From Bacteroidota bacterium (lineage in GTDB: Bacteria > Bacteroidota > Bacteroidia > Cytophagales > ES-bin-26), in assembly GCA_040385915.1 (NCBI GenBank), contig JAZKGK010000153.1, positions 12,466-43,075 of the forward strand: a DNA stretch of 30,610 nt, in the 5' to 3' direction. The notes under the pieces are model-generated. The model was given only the letters and a program-made list of their open reading frames with translations. It was not told the origin of the DNA and made no database searches. Both the position numbers and the translations under genes were made by a program. This document shows positions 3,997 to 30,610 of this stretch, piece by piece. Positions within the stretch are counted from its first letter, which is position 1; every line of letters starts with the position of its first letter.

Positions 3997-4109
3997 CTGA
4001 GCGGACGCTCAGACCCACTTTTAGTCAAGCGACCGCTTGGCTTCCCTATACATTATTCCGTAAACGCCAATCAACCATCCTACCTTCGCCTCACTTATCT
4101 GCTCCACTG
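3997..4109 (+). repeat. Copy A of a ~112-bp repeat element (palindrome-1 ctgagcg-ga-cgctcag, palindrome-2 caagcg-ac-cgcttg, then a ~60-bp tail)
   Basis: Aligns at ~85% identity over ~112 bp with 5642..5752 (same orientation), and in inverted orientation with 30461..30549. Confidence 0.8.
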
Positions 4110-4121
4110 ATTCACGCTTAA

Positions 4122-4598
4122 TCATTTTACTTTTTTATTTGGAAGATAATCTTTATAAACCGACATTCCATTGCGAGGATTCCAGCCAAGAAGATAGATT
4201 TCACCAGAAGTTTGATTCTGAACAAAAGCTTTTTGAGATAGACTATCAATTGCAGTCAATTCTGATACAAATTTGCAATTCTTATTCTGTAGAATAGCGG
4301 CAATTTTTATGCTATCAAGCTGCTTGTGGTCGATAGAATATATCGCTCTAATAAAAACAGAATTATCATTGGCTATATGCTCATAGTGAACAAAGGTGTG
4401 ACCTTCCTGCTTGATATAGTAATTAGGCCATTTAAGCAATACGAAATCGTCATCCAGCAGTTTTTCACCAGAAAGACAGGAAACACTATTGTAGAAACCA
4501 AAACTGTCTTTGGAACAACATACATCACTAAATTGGCAAGAGAAAACTATCAATAGTAAGAAAATGCAAATGGAGAATAAATTAAGGGTTTTAGACAT
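4122..4598 (-). CDS. Hypothetical lipoprotein (ORFan, AT-rich)
   Basis: 158-aa ORF. N-terminal signal peptide with a lipobox-like LIVFSC. GC content is far below the surrounding genes. No recognisable domain. Confidence 0.5.
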   Translation of the reverse strand: MSKTLNLFSICIFLLLIVFSCQFSDVCCSKDSFGFYNSVSCLSGEKLLDDDFVLLKWPNYYIKQEGHTFVHYEHIANDNSVFIRAIYSIDHKQLDSIKIAAILQNKNCKFVSELTAIDSLSQKAFVQNQTSGEIYLLGWNPRNGMSVYKDYLPNKKVK

Positions 4599-4661: not shown

Positions 4662-4688
4662 GTCTTAGCGGACGCTCAATGCTGTCAA
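4662..4688 (+). repeat. Solo terminal-repeat-like copy (gtcttagcggacgctcaatgctgtcaa) of the MITE-like element's inverted repeat
   Basis: 27/27 match to the reverse complement of the right TIR at 5625..5659. Contains the agcg-ga-cgct palindrome core. Confidence 0.7.
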
Positions 4689-4730: not shown

Positions 4731-5414
4731 TTAGTCCCATTGAAGGAGAGTAAGTTTTAGGGGTATAGCTTCGGAAGTCTTAAGCTTAATAGCCCGAACC
4801 GACATAAGTCTTAGGTCAATAGACAATGTATCCAAATCCTCTGAATCATAAATTTGTTCACTTACATAAAGTTTTTGATTTTTATTATCTAAGATGTAGT
4901 ATTCTATGTATCCTACAGGTGAGGAATAATAGCTAAATATTGACAAGCCATTATGATTGTATTTATAAATGAAATCATCTTCATTTATACTATCAATAGC
5001 TTTCACTTTCCCTATACTATCACCATTACAAATAATTAAGCAATTTGTAATTGATGAATCTTTATATTTTATATTTTCATCATAGTCAATTTTAATCAAT
5101 AAAAGATGATTGTCTTGCGCAAAATAGTCCTTGTAAAACAAAAGCTTATTTATTGGAAATTTAGAATTAATAATACCCGTCTTTAATAACACCTGATAAG
5201 CCCATAATAAACTATCCTTATTTAGTGCCATTACAGTATTAGTTTTCTTCGGTTGTTCTATCTGGGCTGTTTTTTCAACTCTCTGAATAGAGATTATCTC
5301 CGACTTTTGCATCTTTTTTGTTGTATCAGAACTACAATCAAAAGCCAATAAGATTAAGAAAAAAAGCATAATCTTCACGATTAAATTTTGCAAGATTTTA
5401 GTTAGCATCGTCAT
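4731..5414 (-). CDS. Hypothetical lipoprotein (ORFan, very AT-rich)
   Basis: 227-aa ORF. Hydrophobic N-terminus ending in the lipobox-like LLAFDCSS. About 30% GC. Asn/Lys/Ile/Tyr-rich. No recognisable domain. Start could be an internal Met (5366). Confidence 0.5.
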   Translation of the reverse strand: MTMLTKILQNLIVKIMLFFLILLAFDCSSDTTKKMQKSEIISIQRVEKTAQIEQPKKTNTVMALNKDSLLWAYQVLLKTGIINSKFPINKLLFYKDYFAQDNHLLLIKIDYDENIKYKDSSITNCLIICNGDSIGKVKAIDSINEDDFIYKYNHNGLSIFSYYSSPVGYIEYYILDNKNQKLYVSEQIYDSEDLDTLSIDLRLMSVRAIKLKTSEAIPLKLTLLQWD

Positions 5415-5448
5415 TTTTATTAATGCAAAAGTCTCAGATCAATTCTGC

Positions 5449-5659
5449 CTGGTCTTAGCGTCCGCTCAATGCTGTCAACTTAAGGATAAAAAGGTGTTTT
5501 CTTCTTCTCTGTTGTCATCCTGAGCGGAGCGAAGGACCTTGTTATGGAGTTACCACTAAACAAATAATAAGGTCCTTCGCTCCGCTCAGGATGACAATCG
5601 CCTGTATAAAGTGGTGGCCATGTTCCTTAAGTTGACAGCATTGAGCGTCCGCTAAGACC
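5449..5659. mobile_element. MITE-like nested palindromic element: 35-bp terminal inverted repeats (5451..5485 and 5625..5659; 33/35 complementary) around a 28-bp perfect inner stem (5513..5540 / 5569..5596) with a 28-nt loop
   Basis: Direct inspection. The left TIR ggtcttagcgtccgctcaatgctgtcaacttaagg is the reverse complement of the right TIR except for the central dinucleotide. The inner IR tgtcatcctgagcggagcgaaggacctt / aaggtccttcgctccgctcaggatgaca is perfect. No ORF inside. Confidence 0.65.
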
Positions 5660-5752
5660 CACCCTTAGCCAAGCGTCCGCTTGGATTGCTTTACATTATC
5701 CAGTAAACGCCAATCAACCATGCTACCCTCGCCTCACTCATCTGCTCACTGC
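5642..5752 (+). repeat. Copy B of the ~112-bp repeat element (direct repeat of 3997..4109); its 5' end coincides with the right TIR of the MITE-like element
   Basis: tgagcgtccgctaagacccacccttagccaagcgtccgcttgg…ccagtaaacgccaatcaaccatgctaccctcgcctcactcatctgctcactg aligns with copy A at ~85% identity. Confidence 0.8.
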
Positions 5753-5994
5753 TAGGATTAGTGGGAGGTAATTTGAGTACCACACCCTTTCTAATAATGG
5801 CCTAGCGTATAAACAATAGCACCTTATTTCATTGGTATGTCTACGCCACAAAAATAGCTTTAACATTTGGAAAAAAACCGCATTTTATATTGTTATTTAG
5901 GGTTTCAGGGTATGAATCTTGCGGCGATATATTTTACTTTAATAGCTCTTTCAGGGGTTGGCAGGAGTAGAGACATGCAATACTTTTTCAATTG

Positions 5995-8900
5995 ATGAAA
6001 TCACTGGTACTATTCTCTTTGTGTTTGTCCATGCTTGCCTTGAAGTTGTATGGACAGACGGATAATGTGCATTTTGAACAACTTTCTACCAAGGAGGGGT
6101 TGTCCCATAGTATCGTTACTTGCACCTTGCAGGACAAGGAGGGCTTTATGTGGATTGGTACCCAGGATGGGCTCAACCGCTTTGACGGCTACAACTTTTT
6201 GCTCTTCGAGCACGACCCTCACGACAATACCAGCATCAGCAATAACGCTATCACGTGTCTCTACGAAGATCTAGAAGGACACCTGTGGATTGGTACCGAA
6301 AGTGGATTAAATAAATTTGATAAAAAAACCAATACCTTCCAGGTCTATCGACACGACCCTGCCAACCCTCAGTCCATTAGCCACGATCTGATAAGAACCA
6401 TTTATGCAGACCGAGCCAATATTTTATGGATTGGCAATTATGCGGGGCTGAATAAATTCAATAAGCAAACCAATACGTGTATCCTCTACGAGCACGCTCC
6501 CCAACATCCCAACAAATGGGCCTATAATCAGATTAATAAAATTTATGAAGACCGGCAAGGAAATTTTTGGTTGGGCACTAACCAAGGCATCAGCCATTTT
6601 GATCGAAAATCATTTCAGTTTACCCGCTATACACTGCCAACCGTATCCAGCCATGACATTGACCCTCGACATGCAGTTAGAGATATGATGGAAGATCGAA
6701 CGGGCGTTTTGTGGGTAGCGACTACGGGTGATGGCTTGGCTGCATTTGATCGGAAGACCACCCAGTTTAAAGTCTATGTACCCCAACCCAAAGACTCCCA
6801 TAGTATAAGGAGCAGCCATATTATGGCGCTCTTGGAAGACTCTTTCGGCACGCTTTGGATAGGCACACAAGACAAAGGCTTATGTCGGTTTGACCGAAGC
6901 AAAAATACTTTCATCCATAATAAACCCAAGCCTGCTTTACTAAAGGCTACTGGCCGTGATGCGGTTACATCCATTTATGAAGACCGCTCCAAAGTATTAT
7001 GGGTAGGTACTTATGAAGCAGGCTTGAAGAAAATAGACTTGTTAAGAAAGCAGTTCGCCCATCTATTCCACGAGCCGGGAAATGACAATAGCATCCGCCA
7101 GAATGATGTAACGGCCTTGTATGAAGACCACCTGGGCGCTATTTGGATTGGCAATGGAGCAGGCTTAGATAAGTTGGATAGAAGCAACGGCCAATATATC
7201 CACTATGATTATCCCGCTCCGGCACCAAAAAATCTTTGGGAAAATAATACCACTTGTATCTACGAAGACCAGGCGGGGCATTTATGGATAGGACTGCTTG
7301 GTGGCGGCTTGAAAAAGTTCGACCGGGCAACGCACCGCTTTACCAGCTATTTACACAATCCGTCCGATTCTACTAGTTTACCGCACGCGCTTGTCAATAC
7401 GATTTATCAAGACAAACAAGGCACCCTTTGGTTGGGCACTCGTTTTGGCTTAGCCCGCTTGGAAGAAGGAAAAGGGAGATTCATCAATTATAAGCCTCCT
7501 TTTCTCAAAACCCAGGCATTTGAAATCACTAAAATCATAGAAGATTCCCAGGGCGAATTGTGGCTGGCTGCTGACCAATATGGCCTCATGAAATTCAACC
7601 CTTCAACCGGGCATTTTACCCCATATGCTTATAAGGAGGCCACCTTTCGCAGTAAGGCGACGGCGATTCACAACCTCTATGAAGATCGGACGGGGTTGTT
7701 GTGGTTATGTCTGCAAGAGGGTGGATTGCTGTGCCTGAATAGTAAAACGGGAAGCTGTCGGGCGATTATGGAACCCAAAGCCTTAACCAAGACAGTTATC
7801 AATGGCATTCTGGCAGATGGGAAAGGAGATTTATGGCTGAGCACCAGCAAAAATGGCTTGTATCACTTTAATCCGGCCACGGCAGCCCTAACCATCTACG
7901 ATGCCTTGGATGGCTTGCAGGCCAATGAGTTTAGTGGGGCTTGCTTCAAAAGCATCACTGGCGAGATGTACTTTGGAGGCAAAAATGGCTTCAATATTTT
8001 TCATCCCGATAGCATTCAGCACAATCCGTATGCGCCTCCGGTAGCCATTAGCAGCTTCAAGGTATTTGACAAGCCCCGCAACTTATCCCAAGTGATTACC
8101 CTGCCCTACTATGATAATTTCCTCTCCTTCGATTTTGTTGCCCTCAGCTATGCTTTCCCTTCCAAAAACCAATATGCGTATCAGCTCGAAGGCTTTGATC
8201 AAGAATGGGTGCAGGCAGGTACGCGCCGCTATGCTTCTTTTACCAATCTACAGCCTGGCGAGTATGTCTTCCGCGTAAAAGCGGCTAACCACGACGGGGC
8301 CTGGAATGAGAAGGGCGCTTCGGTCAAAATCATTATTTCTCCGCCCCTGTGGAGGACAGTCGGTGCCTATATACTGTATGTAGCTTTGTTTATTGCCATG
8401 ATGGATGGTTTACGTCGCTATATCATCAGTCAGGAACGGTTAAAGAATAATTTATTATTAAGTAGTTTGGAGTCGGAAAAATTGATGGAGCTAGACCAGT
8501 TGAAGTCTCGGTTTTTTACCAGCATTTCTCACGAACTTCGGACACCCTTAACGCTCATTTTAAGTCCGTTAGAAAAGAATCTTGCTTCAGCAGACAAAGG
8601 TCGTTTCTTTGAGCAGGAAGTCCGGTTAATGCACCGCAACGCCAAGCGATTGTTAGAACTGATTAACCAACTTTTAGATATTTCTAAGCTGGAAGCCAAA
8701 AAGATGCAGTGGGAGGCAACGCCAGGAGACATGATGCCTCTCCTGAAAGCAACCGTGTTTTCCTTCCTGTCTTTGGCTGAAAGCAAGCAAATCAAACTGA
8801 CGTTTGAAAGCAATCTGGAATCACTGATAACCTTGTTTGACAAAGACAAGTTGGAAAAGATTATAACCAATCTGCTGGCCAACGCTTTGAAGTTTACGCC

Positions 8901-10110
8901 TAAGGGCGAAGTAAAAGTGACTGTATCGATAAAGAGGACGAATGAAAAGCAATGGATTGTCATAGCAGTGGAGGATACGGGCATTGGTATACCTTCGGAT
9001 AGAATCAATAAAATCTTTGACCGTTTCTATCAGGTAGACAGCTCGCACACCCGCGAGTTTGAAGGCACCGGCATTGGTTTGACCTTGACCAAAGAACTCG
9101 TAGAGTTGCAGCAAGGCACGATTGGCGTAACCAGTACCGTAGGCGAAGGCACCTGCTTTACCGTAGAACTCCCCCTGCTGGAAGTAGCCCATGAATTACT
9201 ACTGCCCCAGCCGGAGCAACCACCAAGCGAATTGCAGCAAGTCCAGCAGTTAATTCTCGAAGAAAAGATTTTTTTGGAAGAACATCTACCAAGCCCAGCA
9301 GATGAGCACGCGCCCCTGCTGTTGGTGGTGGAGGACAATGCCGACTTGCGTACCTACATTCGTAATATTTTCCAAGACCGCTACCGGATAATAGAGGCCT
9401 CCAATGGCGAGGAAGGGCTACAAATGGCCCTGGAAACCATTCCTGACCTGATCGTAAGTGATTGGATGATGCCCAAGATGGATGGCGTACAACTGTGCCA
9501 CCAACTCAAGACGGATGAGCGCACCAGCCATATCCCGATGATTTTATTGACCGCCAAAGCTACTGTGCAAAGCAAAATTGAGGGCTTAGAAACGGGAGCC
9601 GATGACTATATTACCAAGCCTTTTCATACCGAGGAGCTTTTCGTCCGGGCGAAAAATTTGATTGCCCAACGCAAAAGCTTACGAGAACGCTGGAATAAAG
9701 AATTTACTGTGGCTCCTCCAGTAGCAATCACCTCTCCTAAACCGATGTCTGCGCTTACGGTAAATGTGTTGGACGAGAAATTTTTGCAGCGGGTAATCCG
9801 TGTAATCGAAGCGAATATCGAGAATCCAGACTTTACTATCGAATCGATGGAAAAAGAAGTGGGCATGAGCCATACCAACTTAAACCGCAAGGTAAAAGCA
9901 CTCACCAATCAAGCGCCCAGTGAATTTATGCGACACTATCGGTTGCAGAAAGCCGCTCACTTACTGTCTCAACACACCAACAATGTATCAGAAGTAGCTT
10001 ACCAGGTAGGATTTGCCAACTTATCTTATTTCACCAAATGTTTCCGGCAAATGTACGGCACTACGCCTTCCGAATATACTGGCCAGCAGCCTCCTATCGA
10101 ACGGCCTTAA
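5995..10110 (+). CDS. Hybrid two-component system sensor histidine kinase/response regulator with AraC-type output (HTCS)
   Basis: 1372 aa, domains in order:
- Signal peptide.
- About 14 repeats of the two-component-regulator beta-propeller motif (…LWIGT..GL..FD…).
- Y_Y_Y-like region, then a TM segment (AYILYVALFIAMM).
- HisKA (FFTSISHELRTPLTLI).
- HATPase_c (NLLANALKFTP…VEDTGIGIP…GTGIGLTLTKELV).
- REC (LLLVVEDNADLR…DLIVSDWMMPKMDG…ILLTAKA).
- AraC HTH (…MRHYRLQKAAHLL…GFANLSYFTKCFRQMYGTTPSEY).
ATG at 5995; the track's 5992 is a TTG. Confidence 0.9.
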   Translation: MKSLVLFSLCLSMLALKLYGQTDNVHFEQLSTKEGLSHSIVTCTLQDKEGFMWIGTQDGLNRFDGYNFLLFEHDPHDNTSISNNAITCLYEDLEGHLWIGTESGLNKFDKKTNTFQVYRHDPANPQSISHDLIRTIYADRANILWIGNYAGLNKFNKQTNTCILYEHAPQHPNKWAYNQINKIYEDRQGNFWLGTNQGISHFDRKSFQFTRYTLPTVSSHDIDPRHAVRDMMEDRTGVLWVATTGDGLAAFDRKTTQFKVYVPQPKDSHSIRSSHIMALLEDSFGTLWIGTQDKGLCRFDRSKNTFIHNKPKPALLKATGRDAVTSIYEDRSKVLWVGTYEAGLKKIDLLRKQFAHLFHEPGNDNSIRQNDVTALYEDHLGAIWIGNGAGLDKLDRSNGQYIHYDYPAPAPKNLWENNTTCIYEDQAGHLWIGLLGGGLKKFDRATHRFTSYLHNPSDSTSLPHALVNTIYQDKQGTLWLGTRFGLARLEEGKGRFINYKPPFLKTQAFEITKIIEDSQGELWLAADQYGLMKFNPSTGHFTPYAYKEATFRSKATAIHNLYEDRTGLLWLCLQEGGLLCLNSKTGSCRAIMEPKALTKTVINGILADGKGDLWLSTSKNGLYHFNPATAALTIYDALDGLQANEFSGACFKSITGEMYFGGKNGFNIFHPDSIQHNPYAPPVAISSFKVFDKPRNLSQVITLPYYDNFLSFDFVALSYAFPSKNQYAYQLEGFDQEWVQAGTRRYASFTNLQPGEYVFRVKAANHDGAWNEKGASVKIIISPPLWRTVGAYILYVALFIAMMDGLRRYIISQERLKNNLLLSSLESEKLMELDQLKSRFFTSISHELRTPLTLILSPLEKNLASADKGRFFEQEVRLMHRNAKRLLELINQLLDISKLEAKKMQWEATPGDMMPLLKATVFSFLSLAESKQIKLTFESNLESLITLFDKDKLEKIITNLLANALKFTPKGEVKVTVSIKRTNEKQWIVIAVEDTGIGIPSDRINKIFDRFYQVDSSHTREFEGTGIGLTLTKELVELQQGTIGVTSTVGEGTCFTVELPLLEVAHELLLPQPEQPPSELQQVQQLILEEKIFLEEHLPSPADEHAPLLLVVEDNADLRTYIRNIFQDRYRIIEASNGEEGLQMALETIPDLIVSDWMMPKMDGVQLCHQLKTDERTSHIPMILLTAKATVQSKIEGLETGADDYITKPFHTEELFVRAKNLIAQRKSLRERWNKEFTVAPPVAITSPKPMSALTVNVLDEKFLQRVIRVIEANIENPDFTIESMEKEVGMSHTNLNRKVKALTNQAPSEFMRHYRLQKAAHLLSQHTNNVSEVAYQVGFANLSYFTKCFRQMYGTTPSEYTGQQPPIERP

Positions 10111-14288: not shown

Positions 14289-14315
14289 GGCTCGTTCGAT
14301 TGCCGGATTGTTAAA

Positions 14316-14376
14316 CAAAAGAAAGGAAAAAGCCCCAATACTACCTTACAGTAGGGAGGCTTTTTCCTTTCTTTTG
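14316..14376 (-). promoter_or_regulatory. Hairpin between the third GH1-like gene and the GH5-like gene (19-bp perfect stem, 23-nt loop)
   Basis: caaaagaaaggaaaaagcc (14316..14334) pairs with ggctttttcctttcttttg (14358..14376). Lies 28 bp upstream of the preferred GH5 start codon and between two co-directional genes. Confidence 0.4.
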
Positions 14377-14386
14377 TCAAATTTGC

Positions 14387-15861: not shown

Positions 15862-15903
15862 TAAAAAAGCCCTTTGTAAATGATTCATTTACAAAGGGCT
15901 TTT
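15862..15903 (-). terminator. Rho-independent terminator (bidirectional-capable) downstream of cvpA
   Basis: aagccctttgtaaatg / catttacaaagggctt forms a 16-bp stem with a 3-nt loop. It is flanked by AAAAA on the plus strand (U-tract for the minus-strand transcript) and TTT on the other side. Confidence 0.75.
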
Positions 15904-16473: not shown

Positions 16474-16497
16474 AGTAAAAGACAGATGTGTAAATTA

Positions 16498-16549
16498 GTA
16501 GAGGTGCAGATGAGTAGCTAAAAGCCTATCTACTCATCTGCACCTCTAC
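16498..16549 (-). terminator. 20-bp perfect inverted repeat with 12-nt loop between ilvC and cvpA (candidate terminator or partial terminator)
   Basis: gtagaggtgcagatgagtag … ctactcatctgcacctctac, located 15 bp past the ilvC stop. The U-tract is weak, so function is uncertain. Confidence 0.45.
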
Positions 16550-16563
16550 ACATCTACTTATTG

Positions 16564-21960: not shown

Positions 21961-22629
21961 ATGAAAGAATTACTCGATTGGGCATTTATTTCCATTAATT
22001 TTCCGCTCACCCTCCTATTACTGGTTATTCTGTTGTACTGGCTTACCGTAATTGTCGGCCTGATCGATTTCAGCTTTCTTCATTTCGACATAGATGCGGA
22101 CATTCATATAGATGGTCATGCGCATGTGCATCTGGAGAAAAACATCCATGTAGATGTAAAAGCGAAACAAAGTCTCTTCACTTCTCTGCTTAATTTTTTC
22201 AATTTGGGAAAAGTGCCTTTCATGATTTTCCTTAGCTTCATGGTTTTATTTATGTGGAGCGGTAGTATTCTAGGGAATTATTACCTCCATAATCAATCGG
22301 TCGGTTTTGCCCTGTTGCTGCTCATTCCCAACTTTATTAGCAGCCTGTTTCTGACCAAGTTTCTTACGTTTCCCCTCATTCACGTTTTTTCTGATGGCAA
22401 AAATGAATTTGAAGCCAATAGTGATTTGATTGGCAAGCCTTGTACACTCCTGCTCTCGGCCACGGAACAGAAAGTGGGTCAGGCAGAAGTGCTATCCGCT
22501 ACGGGTGCGCCGCTGTTACTGACAGTGAAAACCACCACCGGACACCAACTCAAACGAGGCGAAAGAGGGCTGGTGATTGATTATGACCCAGTCACGCACA
22601 CCTACTTAATAGAACCATTTGACCAATAA
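21961..22629 (+). CDS. NfeD/YqiJ-like membrane protein (N-terminal TM helices plus C-terminal NfeD-type OB-fold)
   Basis: 222 aa with three or four hydrophobic segments. The C-terminus 'GKPCTLLLSATEQKVGQAEVLSATGAPLLLTVKTTTGHQLKRGERGLVIDYDP' has the NfeD short-form beta-barrel pattern. It is immediately upstream of a flotillin gene, as in yqiJ-yqiK and nfeD-floT pairs. A His-rich stretch (HIDGHAHVHLEKNIHVD) is present. Confidence 0.65.
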   Translation: MKELLDWAFISINFPLTLLLLVILLYWLTVIVGLIDFSFLHFDIDADIHIDGHAHVHLEKNIHVDVKAKQSLFTSLLNFFNLGKVPFMIFLSFMVLFMWSGSILGNYYLHNQSVGFALLLLIPNFISSLFLTKFLTFPLIHVFSDGKNEFEANSDLIGKPCTLLLSATEQKVGQAEVLSATGAPLLLTVKTTTGHQLKRGERGLVIDYDPVTHTYLIEPFDQ

Positions 22630-22630
22630 A

Positions 22631-22687
22631 GTAAAGAGTTGAAAGTTGAGAGTAAAAAGCTTGAACTCTCAACTTTCAACTCTTTAC
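22631..22687 (+). promoter_or_regulatory. 23-bp perfect hairpin (11-nt loop) between the nfeD-like and flotillin genes
   Basis: gtaaagagttgaaagttgagagt (22631..22653) pairs with actctcaactttcaactctttac (22665..22687). Starts 2 nt after the upstream stop codon and ends 20 nt before the flotillin ATG. Followed by the U-rich tttcaacttaattt. Confidence 0.6.
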
Positions 22688-22707
22688 TTTCAACTTAATT
22701 TAAAACT

Positions 22708-30064: not shown

Positions 30065-30355
30065 TTGACTCGTCGTAGATTACTTACTGAGTTATTATAC
30101 TCAACTCTGTTATCAATTGTTATTTTTAGCTTGATCAGCTTTTTAAGCTACATATTTACCTTAGAAATCTGGACTACTCCACCTGGCCACTCATTTAAAA
30201 TTGGCTTTCCTTGGCCTTTTTATTATCAAATGTTAGTAGAGAAAGATGTACAACATGGGTCTAACATATTAAATTTCCTCTTGGACATTGTACTTACTTG
30301 GGCAACAACAGTAATAAGTTGGCTTATTATAAAAAGGACCAAGGGCAGGAAATAA
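30065..30355 (+). CDS. Small hypothetical membrane protein (AT-rich ORFan, 2 TM)
   Basis: 96 aa with two strongly hydrophobic segments (LLSIVIFSLISFLSYIF; LLDIVLTWATTVISWLII). Low GC. Immediately followed by copies of the palindromic repeat family. Confidence 0.4.
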   Translation: MTRRRLLTELLYSTLLSIVIFSLISFLSYIFTLEIWTTPPGHSFKIGFPWPFYYQMLVEKDVQHGSNILNFLLDIVLTWATTVISWLIIKRTKGRK

Positions 30356-30360
30356 AGTCC

Positions 30361-30560
30361 CTGGCTGGTATTAGCGTCCGCTAATACCCTAAACTATTGA
30401 GCATCCGCTCAAATTACTACCAACCAATTATAGACATGCAGCCGATTATCCAGATGTCCAAAATAGGATGGTTGATGGGTATTTATCGGGTACATTCAGG
30501 CATTCAAGCGGATGCTTGATTAATCTTGGGTCTTAGCGGACGCTAAGACCAGACAGAGGC
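30361..30560. repeat. Cluster of palindromic repeat-family units, including an inverted, diverged copy (30461..30549) of the ~112-bp element seen at 3997..4109 and 5642..5752
   Basis: - ggtattagcg-tc-cgctaatacc (30367..30388).
- ttgagc-atcc-gctcaa (30397..30412).
- caagc-ggat-gcttg (30505..30518).
- ggtcttagcg-ga-cgctaagacc (30529..30550).
- taggatggttgat… aligns with the reverse complement of …atcaaccatcctac… in copies A and B. Confidence 0.7.
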
Positions 30561-30610
30561 TTACCGAAACGAAAAACTGGCCACAGGGCTACAGTTGTCT
30601 TTTACATATG

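Follow-up and report, generated by a model that had tools for sequence, protein, structure and literature searches.

The 211-bp palindromic element that an initial annotation had placed next to a lipoprotein gene and a sensor gene is genuine yet ordinary selfish DNA, an IS4-family MITE inside a small palindromic repeat. In the window, which is the whole stretch of 30,610 nucleotides that was analysed, the locus very probably consists of three nested small repeats: a target palindrome of the REP type, a 177-bp MITE of the IS4 type and, inside the MITE, a TGTC-tagged REP-like pair. This reading is based on the anatomy of the repeats, the target-site duplication (TSD), the empty sites and the ends that the MITE has in common with transposase-bearing elements, and further on the REP-type palindromes beside RAYT genes in relatives and on the inner unit, which is distributed independently of the MITE and shows covariation. 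Nothing in the data points to a new mechanism, and both IS4-type MITEs and REP-targeting insertion sequences are already known.

Two inverted repeats were found at the locus. The arms of the outer repeat comprise 36 nt each (5451-5486 and 5624-5659), lie 137 nt apart and are complementary at 34 of 36 positions (94%). The outer repeat had therefore been recognised properly, with a start at 5451 and not at 5449. The inner repeat has arms of 34 nt (33/34 complementary, 97%) and an 18-nt loop. Its perfect portion measures 29 nt with a loop of 28 nt, close to the 28-bp stem and 28-nt loop described before. For both repeat-arm sequences 0 matches were expected by chance in 100 shuffles, and the 231-nt stretch folded as DNA at -79.3 kcal/mol versus -22.4 +/- 3.6 for the shuffles (z = -16). 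Since neither the arms nor such a fold were obtained from shuffled DNA, a chance origin is excluded and the inverted repeats are real. No open reading frame of at least 50 amino acids was found within 5415-5987, as the initial annotation had stated.

The mobile part is shorter than the outer repeat. It is bounded by perfect terminal inverted repeats (TIRs) of 20 bp, and a 10-bp direct repeat follows on either side. The TSDs that had been proposed as a check are thus present, inside the claimed TIRs. The '35-bp TIR' is a composite of the 20-bp TIR, the 10-bp TSD and 6 bp of the palindromic target. Because the target itself is palindromic (GGTCTTAGCG-TC-CGCTAAGACC, 22 bp), the TIR, the TSD and the outer arms read together as a 36-nt inverted repeat. 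The only two mismatches of this repeat had correctly been located to the centre of an agcg-NN-cgct palindrome; they are the asymmetric centre of the TSD, the TC of AGCG-TC-CGCT, on both sides. With its size below about 500 bp, its non-coding sequence and its TIRs complementary at 20/20 positions, the element shows these features of a MITE, and the proposed non-autonomous nature is supported. The left TIR matches the end consensus of the IS4 subgroup, -AATR--------WTW (PMC2266710, Table 1 therein). The window contains one full MITE and one truncated copy; the latter is complementary to 5632-5658 at 27/27 positions and diverges after CAATGCTGTCAA. The features are collected in the table.

Table. 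Coordinates of the MITE, its target and related repeats in the window
Feature	Position	Strand	Details
Left outer arm of the 22-bp target palindrome	5451-5456	.	GGTCTT; outside the mobile element
TSD, left copy	5457-5466	.	AGCGTCCGCT, core of the REP-type palindrome; 10/10 direct repeat with 5644-5653
MITE proper	5467-5643	.	177 bp, non-coding, perfect 20-bp TIRs at both ends
Left TIR	5467-5486	+	CAATGCTGTCAACTTAAGGA; 20/20 complementary to 5624-5643
Inner hairpin	5512-5597	.	Arms 5512-5545 and 5564-5597, 18-nt spacer; head-to-head TGTC-tagged REP-like pair
Right TIR	5624-5643	-	Reverse complement of the left TIR CAATGCTGTCAACTTAAGGA
TSD, right copy	5644-5653	.	AGCGTCCGCT; 10/10 direct repeat with 5457-5466
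Right outer arm of the target palindrome	5654-5659	.	AAGACC; outside the mobile element
Second REP-type palindrome of the host repeat unit	5669-5684	.	CCAAGCGTCCGCTTGG; followed by a conserved tail of ~60 nt, 5692-5747
Unoccupied copy of the host REP-type unit	3997-4039	.	CTGAGCGGACGCTCAG at 3997-4012, CAAGCGACCGCTTG at 4026-4039
Truncated second copy	4662-4688	+	REP-type half with core, 4662-4676; of the TIR, the initial 12 nt alone (4677-4688)
Intact target palindrome, paralogue	30367-30388		GGTATTAGCGTCCGCTAATACC
Intact unoccupied target paralogue (empty site)	30529-30550	.	GGTCTTAGCGGACGCTAAGACC; within a REPIN/BIME-like composite, 30355-30562

Deletion of 5467-5653 from the sequence yields TCTGCCTGGTCTTAGCGTCCGCTAAGACCCA, and 30 of its 31 positions agree with 30526-30556 read as the reverse complement. 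All empty sites available for comparison are paralogues. The lipoprotein gene beside the MITE is an orphan, for which a search for relatives in the database returned only the gene itself, and no orthologous empty site was obtained by this route; such a site would be expected to read ...CTGGTCTTAGCGTCCGCTAAGACCCA....

Identical flanks were found both filled and empty in a Cytophagales MAG. This genome has contigs of up to 867 kb, which we assume may come from a long-read assembly, and some of the 10-mer differences in it may be sequencing errors. The empty form with a single 10-mer, CATAGCGCA-AGCGTCCGCT-TGTGCCGAA, was observed at five loci (L007, L012, L035, L046 and L053), and L027:1013 is the empty version of the filled site at L048. 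Back-to-back elements had exactly one 10-mer in common, so that the abutted ends were 10 nt apart (L017 and L042). Among the 18 complete elements with perfect 10-mers, the flanking 10-mers were direct in 14. In the other four, as well as in the insertion sequence at L175/L177, the centre of the flanking 10-mer was inverted and not direct, which is not predicted by a simple TSD. The pattern used for the genome scan demanded AGCGNNCGCT on one side, so that this sample is biased toward REP-core targets.

Related insertion sequences have unambiguous TSDs that directly abut CAATG. One of 10 bp, GGCTAAATAC, is non-palindromic (L183-186). Two copies in Chondrinema litorale have 11-bp TSDs, one of them non-palindromic; these are AGCATCTCGCT, within GGTATT...AATACC (NZ_CP111047.1), and ACTTACACACT (NZ_CP111044.1). 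When an empty REP site was sought in the C. litorale plasmids, just another end of an insertion sequence turned up. Taken together, the MITE has a length of 177 bp and not of 211 bp, because the flanks outside AGCG differ between copies (more than 50 related copies were compared), because the paralogous empty sites hold exactly one 10-mer and because the non-palindromic TSDs of the relatives, 10-11 bp long, directly abut CAATG.

The MITE belongs to a multi-copy family: the end motif was found at 54 loci, of which 32 are in the Cytophagales MAG and Xanthocytophaga flavus contributes 17. The X. flavus loci lie mostly 100-200 nt from a contig end. About 25 complete short elements in the MAG, 130-211 bp in length, have the same ends and differing interiors. 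At the P0035 loci, a 12-mer test showed no inverted repeat.

The autonomous relatives, all in other genomes, are Cytophagales insertion sequences of 1.39-1.50 kb that encode IS4-family transposases. The ends of the 1399-bp insertion sequence at L025 are identical to the TIR of the window over 18-20 nt, and related ends were also found on the elements at L017 and L175 and in C. litorale. The L025 gene matches Pfam DDE_Tnp_1 and NCBIfam transpos_IS4_1. Because it is frameshifted, its two halves reach 81.9 and 59.8 bits on NF033592 transpos_IS4_1 and stay below the cut-off of 115. The element at L017 encodes an intact transposase of 436 amino acids, which scored 173.5 bits on the same model and 53.5 bits on DDE_Tnp_1. 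The Y(2)R(3)E(6)K motif, as defined in PMC2266710, was read as YFQRWGVEVFFDLLK in L017, YSLRWGVETYYDYLK in L025 and YGMRWGIETYYDYLK in C. litorale, where the copy is annotated as 'IS4 family transposase'. The TSDs of 10 and 11 bp and the CAATG ends of the relatives agree with the traits of the IS4 family, a TSD of about 10 bp (8-13 bp) and 5'-CA ends, and with those of the IS4 subgroup, ends of -AATR--------WTW and direct repeats of 10-13 bp (PMC2266710). The MITE is a non-autonomous relative of these 1.39-1.50-kb insertion sequences with the same ends. The cognate transposase, called unknown before, can now be named at the level of the family as an IS4-family DDE transposase. A tblastn search of the window showed neither an IS4 transposase nor a RAYT, and the matching genes for both are presumably present in the source genome.

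The palindrome that was struck by the MITE is most likely a REP, because palindromes of this kind lie beside RAYT genes of Pontibacter, Fulvivirga and Cyclobacteriaceae. In the window, palindromes of 14-22 nt with the AGCG-NN-CGCT core are located at 3997, 4026, 5451/5654, 5669, 30367, 30397, 30504 and 30529. All of them lie between open reading frames, as expected for a REP, which is a short imperfect palindrome (20-40 nt), repeated and extragenic. The target is the first of the two palindromes of a host repeat unit, of which the window contains three or more copies; the order of REP1, ~9 nt, REP2 and tail is repeated at 3997-4104 and, inverted, at 30464-30550. The palindrome type of 5669-5684 was also found flanking the RAYT gene of Pontibacter akesuensis. 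At L175, a palindrome interrupted by an insertion sequence is adjoined by a gene that reached 93.9 bits on the model of the REP-associated tyrosine transposase (NF047646, cut-off 80). Homologous RAYT genes have palindromes of the GGCGCAAGCGTCCGCTTGTG type alongside in Pontibacter and of the GGTCTTAGCGTCTCGCTGAGACC type in Fulvivirga and Cyclobacteriaceae. In total, RAYT genes flanked by the palindromes were observed in relatives at four separate loci (L175, L187, L189/L191 and L192).

The inner stem is not unique to the MITE. It consists of two copies of a repeat unit that is unrelated to the target REP and is found widely outside the MITE. The 24-nt inner arm was found in at least 120 metagenome contigs, in none of them adjoining a MITE TIR, and the unit is widespread in soil metagenomes. 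It occurs both as single arms and as pairs of 70-115 bp (32 such pairs in 120 contigs). Each arm folds on its own, with covariation at 5 of the 7 Watson-Crick pairs. The stem has 9 positions and is interrupted by two internal G.A mismatches. Its first pairs are A-T and T-A in the consensus of the family, but the first pair of the window copy is A.C. The loop has 3 nt and the tail reads CCT/CTT. The tag is unpaired and reads TGTC in the window and TGTC or CGTC in the metagenome copies. In the window pair, the tags are on the outside and the spacer is 18-28 nt. The inner arm was absent from the 54 Cytophagales loci of the MITE family and is therefore no general part of this family. Searched as text in the literature, the inner-arm sequence produced a chance match only, BLAST against plasmids gave no match, and the supplements of PMC3733652 contained no matching sequence.

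The pair could be cargo and not a late chance insertion, such that IS4-type MITEs would pick up and move orphan CGTC/TGTC-tagged dimers, for which no dedicated transposase is known (PMC3733652). We regard this as very improbable. If it were true, it would provide a route for the spread of REP dimers within and between genomes and could help to explain how a Bacteroidota MAG with 45% GC and many soil contigs of 55-68% GC come to have an identical 24-nt arm.

Two genes start in the spacer that bears the MITE and diverge from it, that of the lipoprotein on the minus strand and that of the sensor on the plus strand. Since the genes diverge and no T-run adjoins the inner hairpin on either side, the earlier proposal of a bidirectional terminator or insulator is unlikely. 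A terminator scan made no call at 5512-5597 and flagged only the small palindrome at 5669-5684. With permissive and gathering thresholds, Rfam returned no family at the gathering score, and the sub-threshold matches were only to eukaryotic miRNA-precursor models on the inner hairpin. ARAGORN found no tRNA, so the alternative of a tRNA or a known RNA was not corroborated by either program. A scan for sigma-70 promoters gave no more matches than the shuffles and a search for TAnnTTTG gave matches not above chance; both are uninformative on promoters. The insertion is probably without a dedicated cellular function.

Other explanations of the locus were weighed against a 177-bp MITE in a REP-type target. 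A single 211-bp MITE, with TIRs of 35-36 bp including GGTCTTAGCG..CGCT and a TSD outside 5451/5659, would account for the 94% complementarity of the 36-nt arms and for the recurrence of the junction GTCTTAGCGGACGCTCAATGCTGTCAA at 4662-4688, but this recurrence is also explicable by a second insertion in the same kind of REP. No direct repeat exists beyond 5451/5659, and the 10-mers inside are direct and not inverted copies. Together with the variable bases beyond AGCG, the empty sites that keep one 10-mer with the same outer arms and the TSDs of the relatives at CAATG, this makes the longer element highly improbable. A functional signal at the RNA or DNA level (a terminator, insulator, attenuator or sRNA) whose hairpins are under selection, with no transposon insertion at all, would be compatible with the very stable predicted fold and the intergenic position, and REP-type elements are discussed in the literature as possible terminators or mRNA stabilisers (PMC3733652). 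We consider it very improbable, as neither of the divergent transcripts needs terminating here, the T-run, the terminator call and an Rfam family are all missing at the inner hairpin, and all three layers are accounted for as copies of dispersed repeats.

The remaining alternatives invoke other enzymes. Site-specific recombination of the palindromic site of a circular element with the REP, catalysed by a tyrosine, serine or IS110-type recombinase, would make the 10 bp an att core, and the site of the circular element would then read ..GCATTG-AGCG-TC-CGCT-CAATGC... The attL/attR-like hybrid palindromes with their conserved asymmetric centre and the distance of exactly 10 nt between abutted ends (L017 and L042) speak for such a reaction, and REP-specific IS110 elements exist (PMC1525189). 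However, the autonomous relatives encode only IS4-family DDE transposases and duplicate unrelated non-palindromic sequences of 10-11 bp, unlike a core-dependent recombinase. On account of these non-palindromic TSDs the recombination model was rejected, with a very low residual probability. We give equally little credence to the whole composite as a RAYT-mobilised REPIN/BIME cluster, in which the repeats starting with CAATG would be further REP-like arms and not ends of an insertion sequence. REP palindromes and REPIN-like doublets are abundant in the window and the relatives have RAYT genes with such REPs, but IS4-family elements that bear a transposase have ends identical to the 20-bp arms, these arms are bordered by the 10-bp duplications typical of this family, and the window is devoid of a RAYT.

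For the insertion of the 177-bp MITE we propose the following course. An IS4-family DDE transposase, supplied in trans, would bind both TIRs and excise the MITE, presumably by cut-and-paste. The REP would be cut with a stagger of 10 bp that has the AGCG-NN-CGCT core at its centre, and the excised MITE would be joined to the cut target. Repair of the stagger would result in the two direct copies of AGCGTCCGCT. A second insertion of this type would also account for the junction at 4662-4688.

For annotation, the locus teaches that a transposon whose TIRs are short can mimic a long, 36-nt 'TIR' when it inserts at the middle of a palindromic repeat, and that the direct orientation of the asymmetric centre gives the composite away. 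The results define a Cytophagales family of IS4-type elements, comprising insertion sequences and MITEs, with a preference for the AGCG-NN-CGCT core of REP palindromes. The targeting of REPs by IS4-family elements, as by ISRm22, is thereby extended to the Bacteroidota, and the REP palindromes of these bacteria are linked to RAYT genes. The elements disrupt short-read assemblies, as seen at the X. flavus contig ends, which matters for assembly and strain typing. They are located in promoter regions and are possibly relevant to gene expression.

The inner unit resembles the CGTC-tagged REPs. These end on one side in an unpaired tag, CGTC (or TGTC/CCTC), and form mostly dimers, with the tags outside and a spacer of 20-100 bp; the stem has 8-9 bp with A-T pairs first, and there are a loop of 4-5 nt and a 3-nt CCA tail (Di Nocera et al. 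2013, PMC3733652). The inner unit has likewise an unpaired TGTC/CGTC tag, a stem of ~9 bp that begins with A-T and T-A in the family consensus and a short tail, is mostly paired with the tags outside and 20-100 bp apart, and occurs across phyla with no transposase nearby. In contrast, its loop has 3 nt (GAA/GGA) and not 4-5, its stem holds two tandem G.A mismatches and its tail is CCT/CTT instead of CCA. The unit is a putative member of the CGTC-tagged REPs.

The target palindrome is similar to the REPs and REPINs associated with RAYTs (Nunvar 2010, PMC2817692; Bertels & Rainey 2011, PMC3116915) in being a short, repeated, extragenic palindrome. Like REPINs, the target palindromes are arranged in inverted doublets (30355-30562), and palindromes of their type border RAYT genes in relatives. 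The MITE itself is not a REPIN, since it has TIRs of the insertion-sequence type and a TSD. REP palindromes also serve as insertion sites for IS1397/ISKpn1 of the IS3 family and for IS621, ISPpu9, ISPpu10 and ISPa11 of the IS110 family (PMC1525189). These elements differ from the MITE in their transposase families and their chemistry, and the IS110 elements are without TIRs.

The IS231 transposase mobilises MIC231 in trans, and the target consensus of IS231 is symmetric. MIC231 elements are transposase-less cassettes with IS231 ends in the Bacillus cereus group and belong to the IS4 family (cited in PMC2266710). The MITE is comparable in being non-autonomous and in having IS4-family TIRs and a TSD of 10-12 bp, but the cassettes are larger, carry genes and reside in another host phylum. 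The MITE ends follow the IS231 consensus CAT-------AA--TAA (PMC2266710) with AA at positions 11-12 and TAA at 15-17, and deviate from it with A instead of T at position 3. The REP target is a feature of the MITE and not of IS231.

ISRm22 of Sinorhizobium meliloti belongs to the IS4Sa subgroup of the IS4 family, and 10 of its 10 copies are inserted in REPs (Tobes & Pareja 2006, PMC1525189; PMC2266710). ISRm22 is a full-length insertion sequence of an alphaproteobacterium, whereas the element described here is a non-autonomous derivative of 177 bp in a Bacteroidota MAG, with ends that fit the consensus of the IS4/IS231 subgroup and not that of IS4Sa. In both cases, an element of the IS4-family DDE type is inserted in a REP with conserved palindromic target arms.

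The initial annotation had described a 211-bp MITE-like element at 5449-5659 with 35-bp TIRs and a perfect 28-bp internal stem. Its inverted repeats proved to be real: the arms of the outer repeat are 36 nt long and complementary at 34/36 positions, and those of the inner repeat are 34 nt long (33/34) around a loop of 18 nt, with a perfect part of 29 nt and a loop of 28 nt. The two mismatches of the outer repeat lie at the centre of AGCG-NN-CGCT, as had been noted. By chance, the window would be expected to contain neither the outer nor the inner arm sequence. A 231-nt stretch folded as single-stranded DNA gave -79.3 kcal/mol, against -22.4 +/- 3.6 kcal/mol for shuffled sequences (z = -16). 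Between 5414 and 5988 there was no open reading frame of 50 or more amino acids. The alternative of a tRNA or a known non-coding RNA was also checked; over the element region no tRNA was found and no Rfam family reached its gathering score.

The MITE is flanked by a direct target-site duplication (TSD) of the 10-mer AGCGTCCGCT, identical at 10/10 positions. The interpretation as a MITE was upheld and its anatomy corrected, from 211 bp with 35-bp TIRs to 177 bp with perfect 20-bp TIRs and a 10-bp TSD. Intact palindromes with the same AGCG-NN-CGCT core are present elsewhere in the window. They belong to a host repeat unit consisting of palindrome 1, a gap of about 9 nt, palindrome 2 and a tail of about 60 nt, in that order; the copy at 5644 has a split palindrome 1. 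When 5467-5653 was deleted in silico, TCTGCCTGGTCTTAGCGTCCGCTAAGACCCA was obtained, which is identical at 30/31 positions to the reverse complement of 30526-30556, a paralogous empty site like the others used for comparison. This shows that an existing palindrome gained 177 bp and one extra 10-mer. Because both the TIRs and the TSD are perfect, the sequence suggests a recent insertion.

Coordinates of the features (in the window unless prefixed with a locus)
Feature	Position	Strand	Remarks
MITE	5467-5643		non-coding
TIRs of the MITE	5467-5486 / 5624-5643
Outer inverted repeat	5451-5486 / 5624-5659
Inner inverted repeat	5512-5545 / 5564-5597
Target-site duplication	5457-5466 / 5644-5653
Intact palindrome GGTCTTAGCGGACGCTAAGACC	30529-30550		same core as split palindrome
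Intact palindrome GGTATTAGCGTCCGCTAATACC	30367-30388		same core as split palindrome
CAAGCG..CGCTTG-type palindromes	4026; 5669; 30504		same core
Host repeat unit	3997-4104; 5644-5747; 30464-30550		last copy inverted
Remnant of a second MITE insertion	4662-4688		in same kind of palindrome; REP half, 10-mer and first 12 nt of TIR left
Mirrored palindromes	30355-30562		30367-30388 + 30397-30412 mirrored by 30504-30519 + 30529-30550; arms 42 nt, 81% complementary
AT-rich segment	4105-5643		1.6 kb; GC ~0.35 vs ~0.47 elsewhere
Orphan gene	4122-4598	minus	no Pfam/NCBIfam match
Orphan gene (lipoprotein)	4731-5414	minus	no Pfam/NCBIfam match; 100% identical to V4714_11745 ('Bacteroidota bacterium' NCBI MAG protein)
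Hybrid two-component sensor gene	5992-10110	plus
Other long intergenic hairpins	22628-22690; 15865-15903; 14315-14377; 16490-16557		sequence unrelated to MITE
Inverted arm pairs in metagenome contigs (examples)	L063:2529-2610; L102:3842-3916

The mirrored palindromes, which include the intact paralogue of the MITE target, form a REPIN/BIME-like doublet. The AT-rich segment with the two orphan genes is flanked by direct copies of the host repeat unit, 90% identical over 59 nt in addition to the palindromes, and may be an insertion or a rearrangement via the repeats.

Relatives were searched with the pattern AGCGNNCGCTCAATGCTGTCAA in one genome per species, a set outside which the window's own genome falls; the pattern needed the 10-mer on one side, which biased the target spectrum. 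Of the 54 loci found, 32 came from one uncultured Cytophagales MAG and 17 from Xanthocytophaga flavus NT2B1, the latter mostly close to contig ends (100-200 nt), the position expected of a repeat that breaks short-read assembly. A few were in Cyclobacteriaceae, Cytophagaceae and Fulvivirga MAGs, and one, in a Nevskia MAG and without the rest of the TIR, is probably a chance match. The bases outside AGCG vary between the copies (CTT, GCA, ACA, CCC, TGA, CGC and others), so the conservation begins at the 10-mer or the TIR rather than at GGTCTT. Around 25 complete elements, 130-211 bp long, have the common ends CAATGC(T/C)GT(C/T)AACTTA and differ in their interiors. Perfect 10-mers on both sides were seen in 18 complete elements, direct in 14 and with an inverted centre (TC on one side, GA on the other) in 4 (L023, L025, L029, L033). 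Back-to-back elements have exactly one 10-mer in common. In the Cytophagales MAG identical flanks were found both with and without an insertion; the unoccupied sites contain the 10-mer once, as CATAGCGCA-AGCGTCCGCT-TGTGCCGAA (5 loci), and L027:1013 is the unoccupied form of the filled L048 site.

Transposase genes were found between the same ends. In L025 (Fulvivirga MAG), a 1399-bp element matches the window's TIR over 18-20 nt at its ends and contains a frameshifted gene matching Pfam DDE_Tnp_1 and NCBIfam transpos_IS4_1. L017:2759-5772 (Cytophagales MAG, CAVSOI010000022.1) holds two tandem 1502-bp IS copies, 99% identical, each with the TIR CAATGCCATTAAGTTAAG and an intact 436-aa transposase that scored 173.5 bits on NF033592 (cut-off 115) and 53.5 bits on DDE_Tnp_1 and has the motif YFQRWGVEVFFDLLK. 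On its outer sides the pair is flanked by AGCGTCCGCT in direct orientation. The two copies are exactly 10 nt apart, and the spacer TGGGGACGCC differs from the outer 10-mers, which is not predicted by a simple double insertion. Homologues of this transposase are common in Bacteroidota under the NCBI name 'IS4 family transposase'. The element around P0067, a relative at L183-186, has the ends CAATGTCATTAAGTTA and lies between copies of the non-palindromic 10-mer GGCTAAATAC. Chondrinema litorale WSW3-B12, whose genome is complete, has a 1392-bp copy that reads GGTATT-AGCATCTCGCT-[IS]-AGCATCTCGCT-AATACC, where the 11-bp AGCATCTCGCT is directly duplicated within a palindrome resembling the window's; a second copy has the non-palindromic 11-bp duplication ACTTACACACT. 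The clean TSDs of these relatives establish CAATG as the element ends and give a TSD of 10-11 bp for the family; they also show that palindromes are a preferred, not an obligatory, target.

The IS4 family is defined by DDE together with the Y(2)R(3)E(6)K motif, by 5'-CA ends and by a TSD close to one helical turn in length, with the ends -AATR--------WTW and direct repeats of 10-13 bp in the IS4 subgroup and CAT-------AA--TAA and 10-12 bp in the IS231 subgroup (PMC2266710). The ends, TSDs and transposases of the relatives agree with this definition. In C. litorale NZ_CP111047.1, an IS end fragment (L194:1055-1140) lies 1.4 kb from a complete IS and adjoins the same REP half (CTCTGGTATTAGCATCTCGCT) in opposite orientation, which suggests a rearrangement between copies.

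The gene-less 177-bp element is thus bounded by TIRs and a 10-bp TSD, and its ends are those of IS4-family insertion sequences. Binding, excision and staggered integration are known from the IS4-family members IS10 and IS50. By analogy, a transposase dimer supplied in trans would bind both TIRs, excise the element and insert it at staggered cuts about one helical turn apart; the two-fold symmetry of this complex would account for the symmetric target preference.

The inner hairpin has a different distribution. Its arm was absent from the 54 Cytophagales loci. When metagenomes were scanned with GTCATCCTGAGCGNAGCGAAGGAC, the 24-nt arm was found without any change in at least 120 contigs from soil and peat (L055-L174); among the matches listed, almost all had 55-68% G+C, none had the arm next to a MITE TIR and no transposase was seen nearby. 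The arms form at least 32 inverted pairs of 70-115 bp and at least about 92 single arms. A single arm is predicted to fold alone, as A-TCCT-GA-GC-(GAA)-GC-GA-AGGA-T, where tandem G.A mismatches enclose a GCGAAGC core. In 34 variant arms, changes occurred on both sides in 5/7 Watson-Crick pairs; this covariation (21 cells) was matched by 0/500 shuffles, and slid controls were far lower. In design, the arm resembles the CGTC-tagged REPs of Di Nocera et al. 2013 (PMC3733652), with a tag (TGTC or CGTC), a stem of about 9 bp whose first pairs are A-T and T-A, a short tail, paired units with the tags outside and no transposase nearby; its loop of 3 nt and its tail differ from theirs. As the arm is spread elsewhere, folds by itself and has the tagged-REP design, the perfect internal stem consists of two head-to-head units of another dispersed repeat within the MITE.

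The genes on either side of the MITE are real and divergent. The lipoprotein gene product has an N-terminus resembling a lipoprotein signal, and V4714_11745 is annotated 15 codons shorter than the open reading frame. The MITE is upstream of both, at 43-88 nt from the lipoprotein start codon and about 330 nt from the sensor ORF, hence in the promoter space of the two genes. A role of the inner hairpin as a bidirectional terminator, proposed initially, is unlikely, since the two genes point away from each other, the hairpin has no T-run after it and the terminator scan made no call there. Promoter scans of the spacer were uninformative. We regard the MITE as a selfish insertion whose effect on expression is possibly nil. 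The four other long intergenic hairpins are probably terminators; one has perfect arms of 26 nt and an 11-nt loop, one perfect arms of 19 nt and a 1-nt loop, and in the remaining two the arms measure 28-31 nt, with a complementarity of 87-89%.

The nature of the target was indicated by L175, where an IS of this family, with a transposase 84% identical to that of L017, lies in a palindrome adjoining a 183-aa gene. This gene scored 93.9 bits on NF047646, the REP-associated tyrosine transposase (RAYT; cut-off 80), and the palindrome arm is also present on its far side. The 10-mers flanking the L175/L177 IS are not a matching direct repeat (AGCGGACGCT vs ATCATCCGCT; centre inverted), and the flanks of this IS are the two arms of a longer palindrome beside the RAYT gene. 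Inverted centres, here and in the 4/18 elements, could come from template switching within the palindrome or from recombination between copies whose REPs have opposite orientations. RAYT homologues are bordered by related palindromes in Pontibacter akesuensis (GGCGCAAGCGTCCGCTTGTG-type, the target type in the Cytophagales MAG), Fulvivirga (GGTCTTAGCGTCTCGCTGAGACC) and a Cyclobacteriaceae MAG (GGTCTTAGCGTCTCGCTAGGACC). The window's palindromes are therefore most likely REPs. In Fulvivirga sp. JAVKEL010000038.1 (L189:276-3552), a RAYT gene and its flanking REPs immediately follow a CBASS-like defence operon (NUDIX, SMODS/DncV-like nucleotidyltransferase, E2-CBASS).

Taken together, the family prefers the AGCG-NN-CGCT core of REPs, and the 177-bp MITE is a member of this IS4-type family, nested in a putative REP and carrying a pair of a second REP-like unit. 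Insertion sequences that target REPs are known from five families, and 10/10 copies of the IS4-family ISRm22 lie in REPs (PMC1525189). An IS4-type MITE in a putative REP is a further case of a known kind of element, of modest significance.
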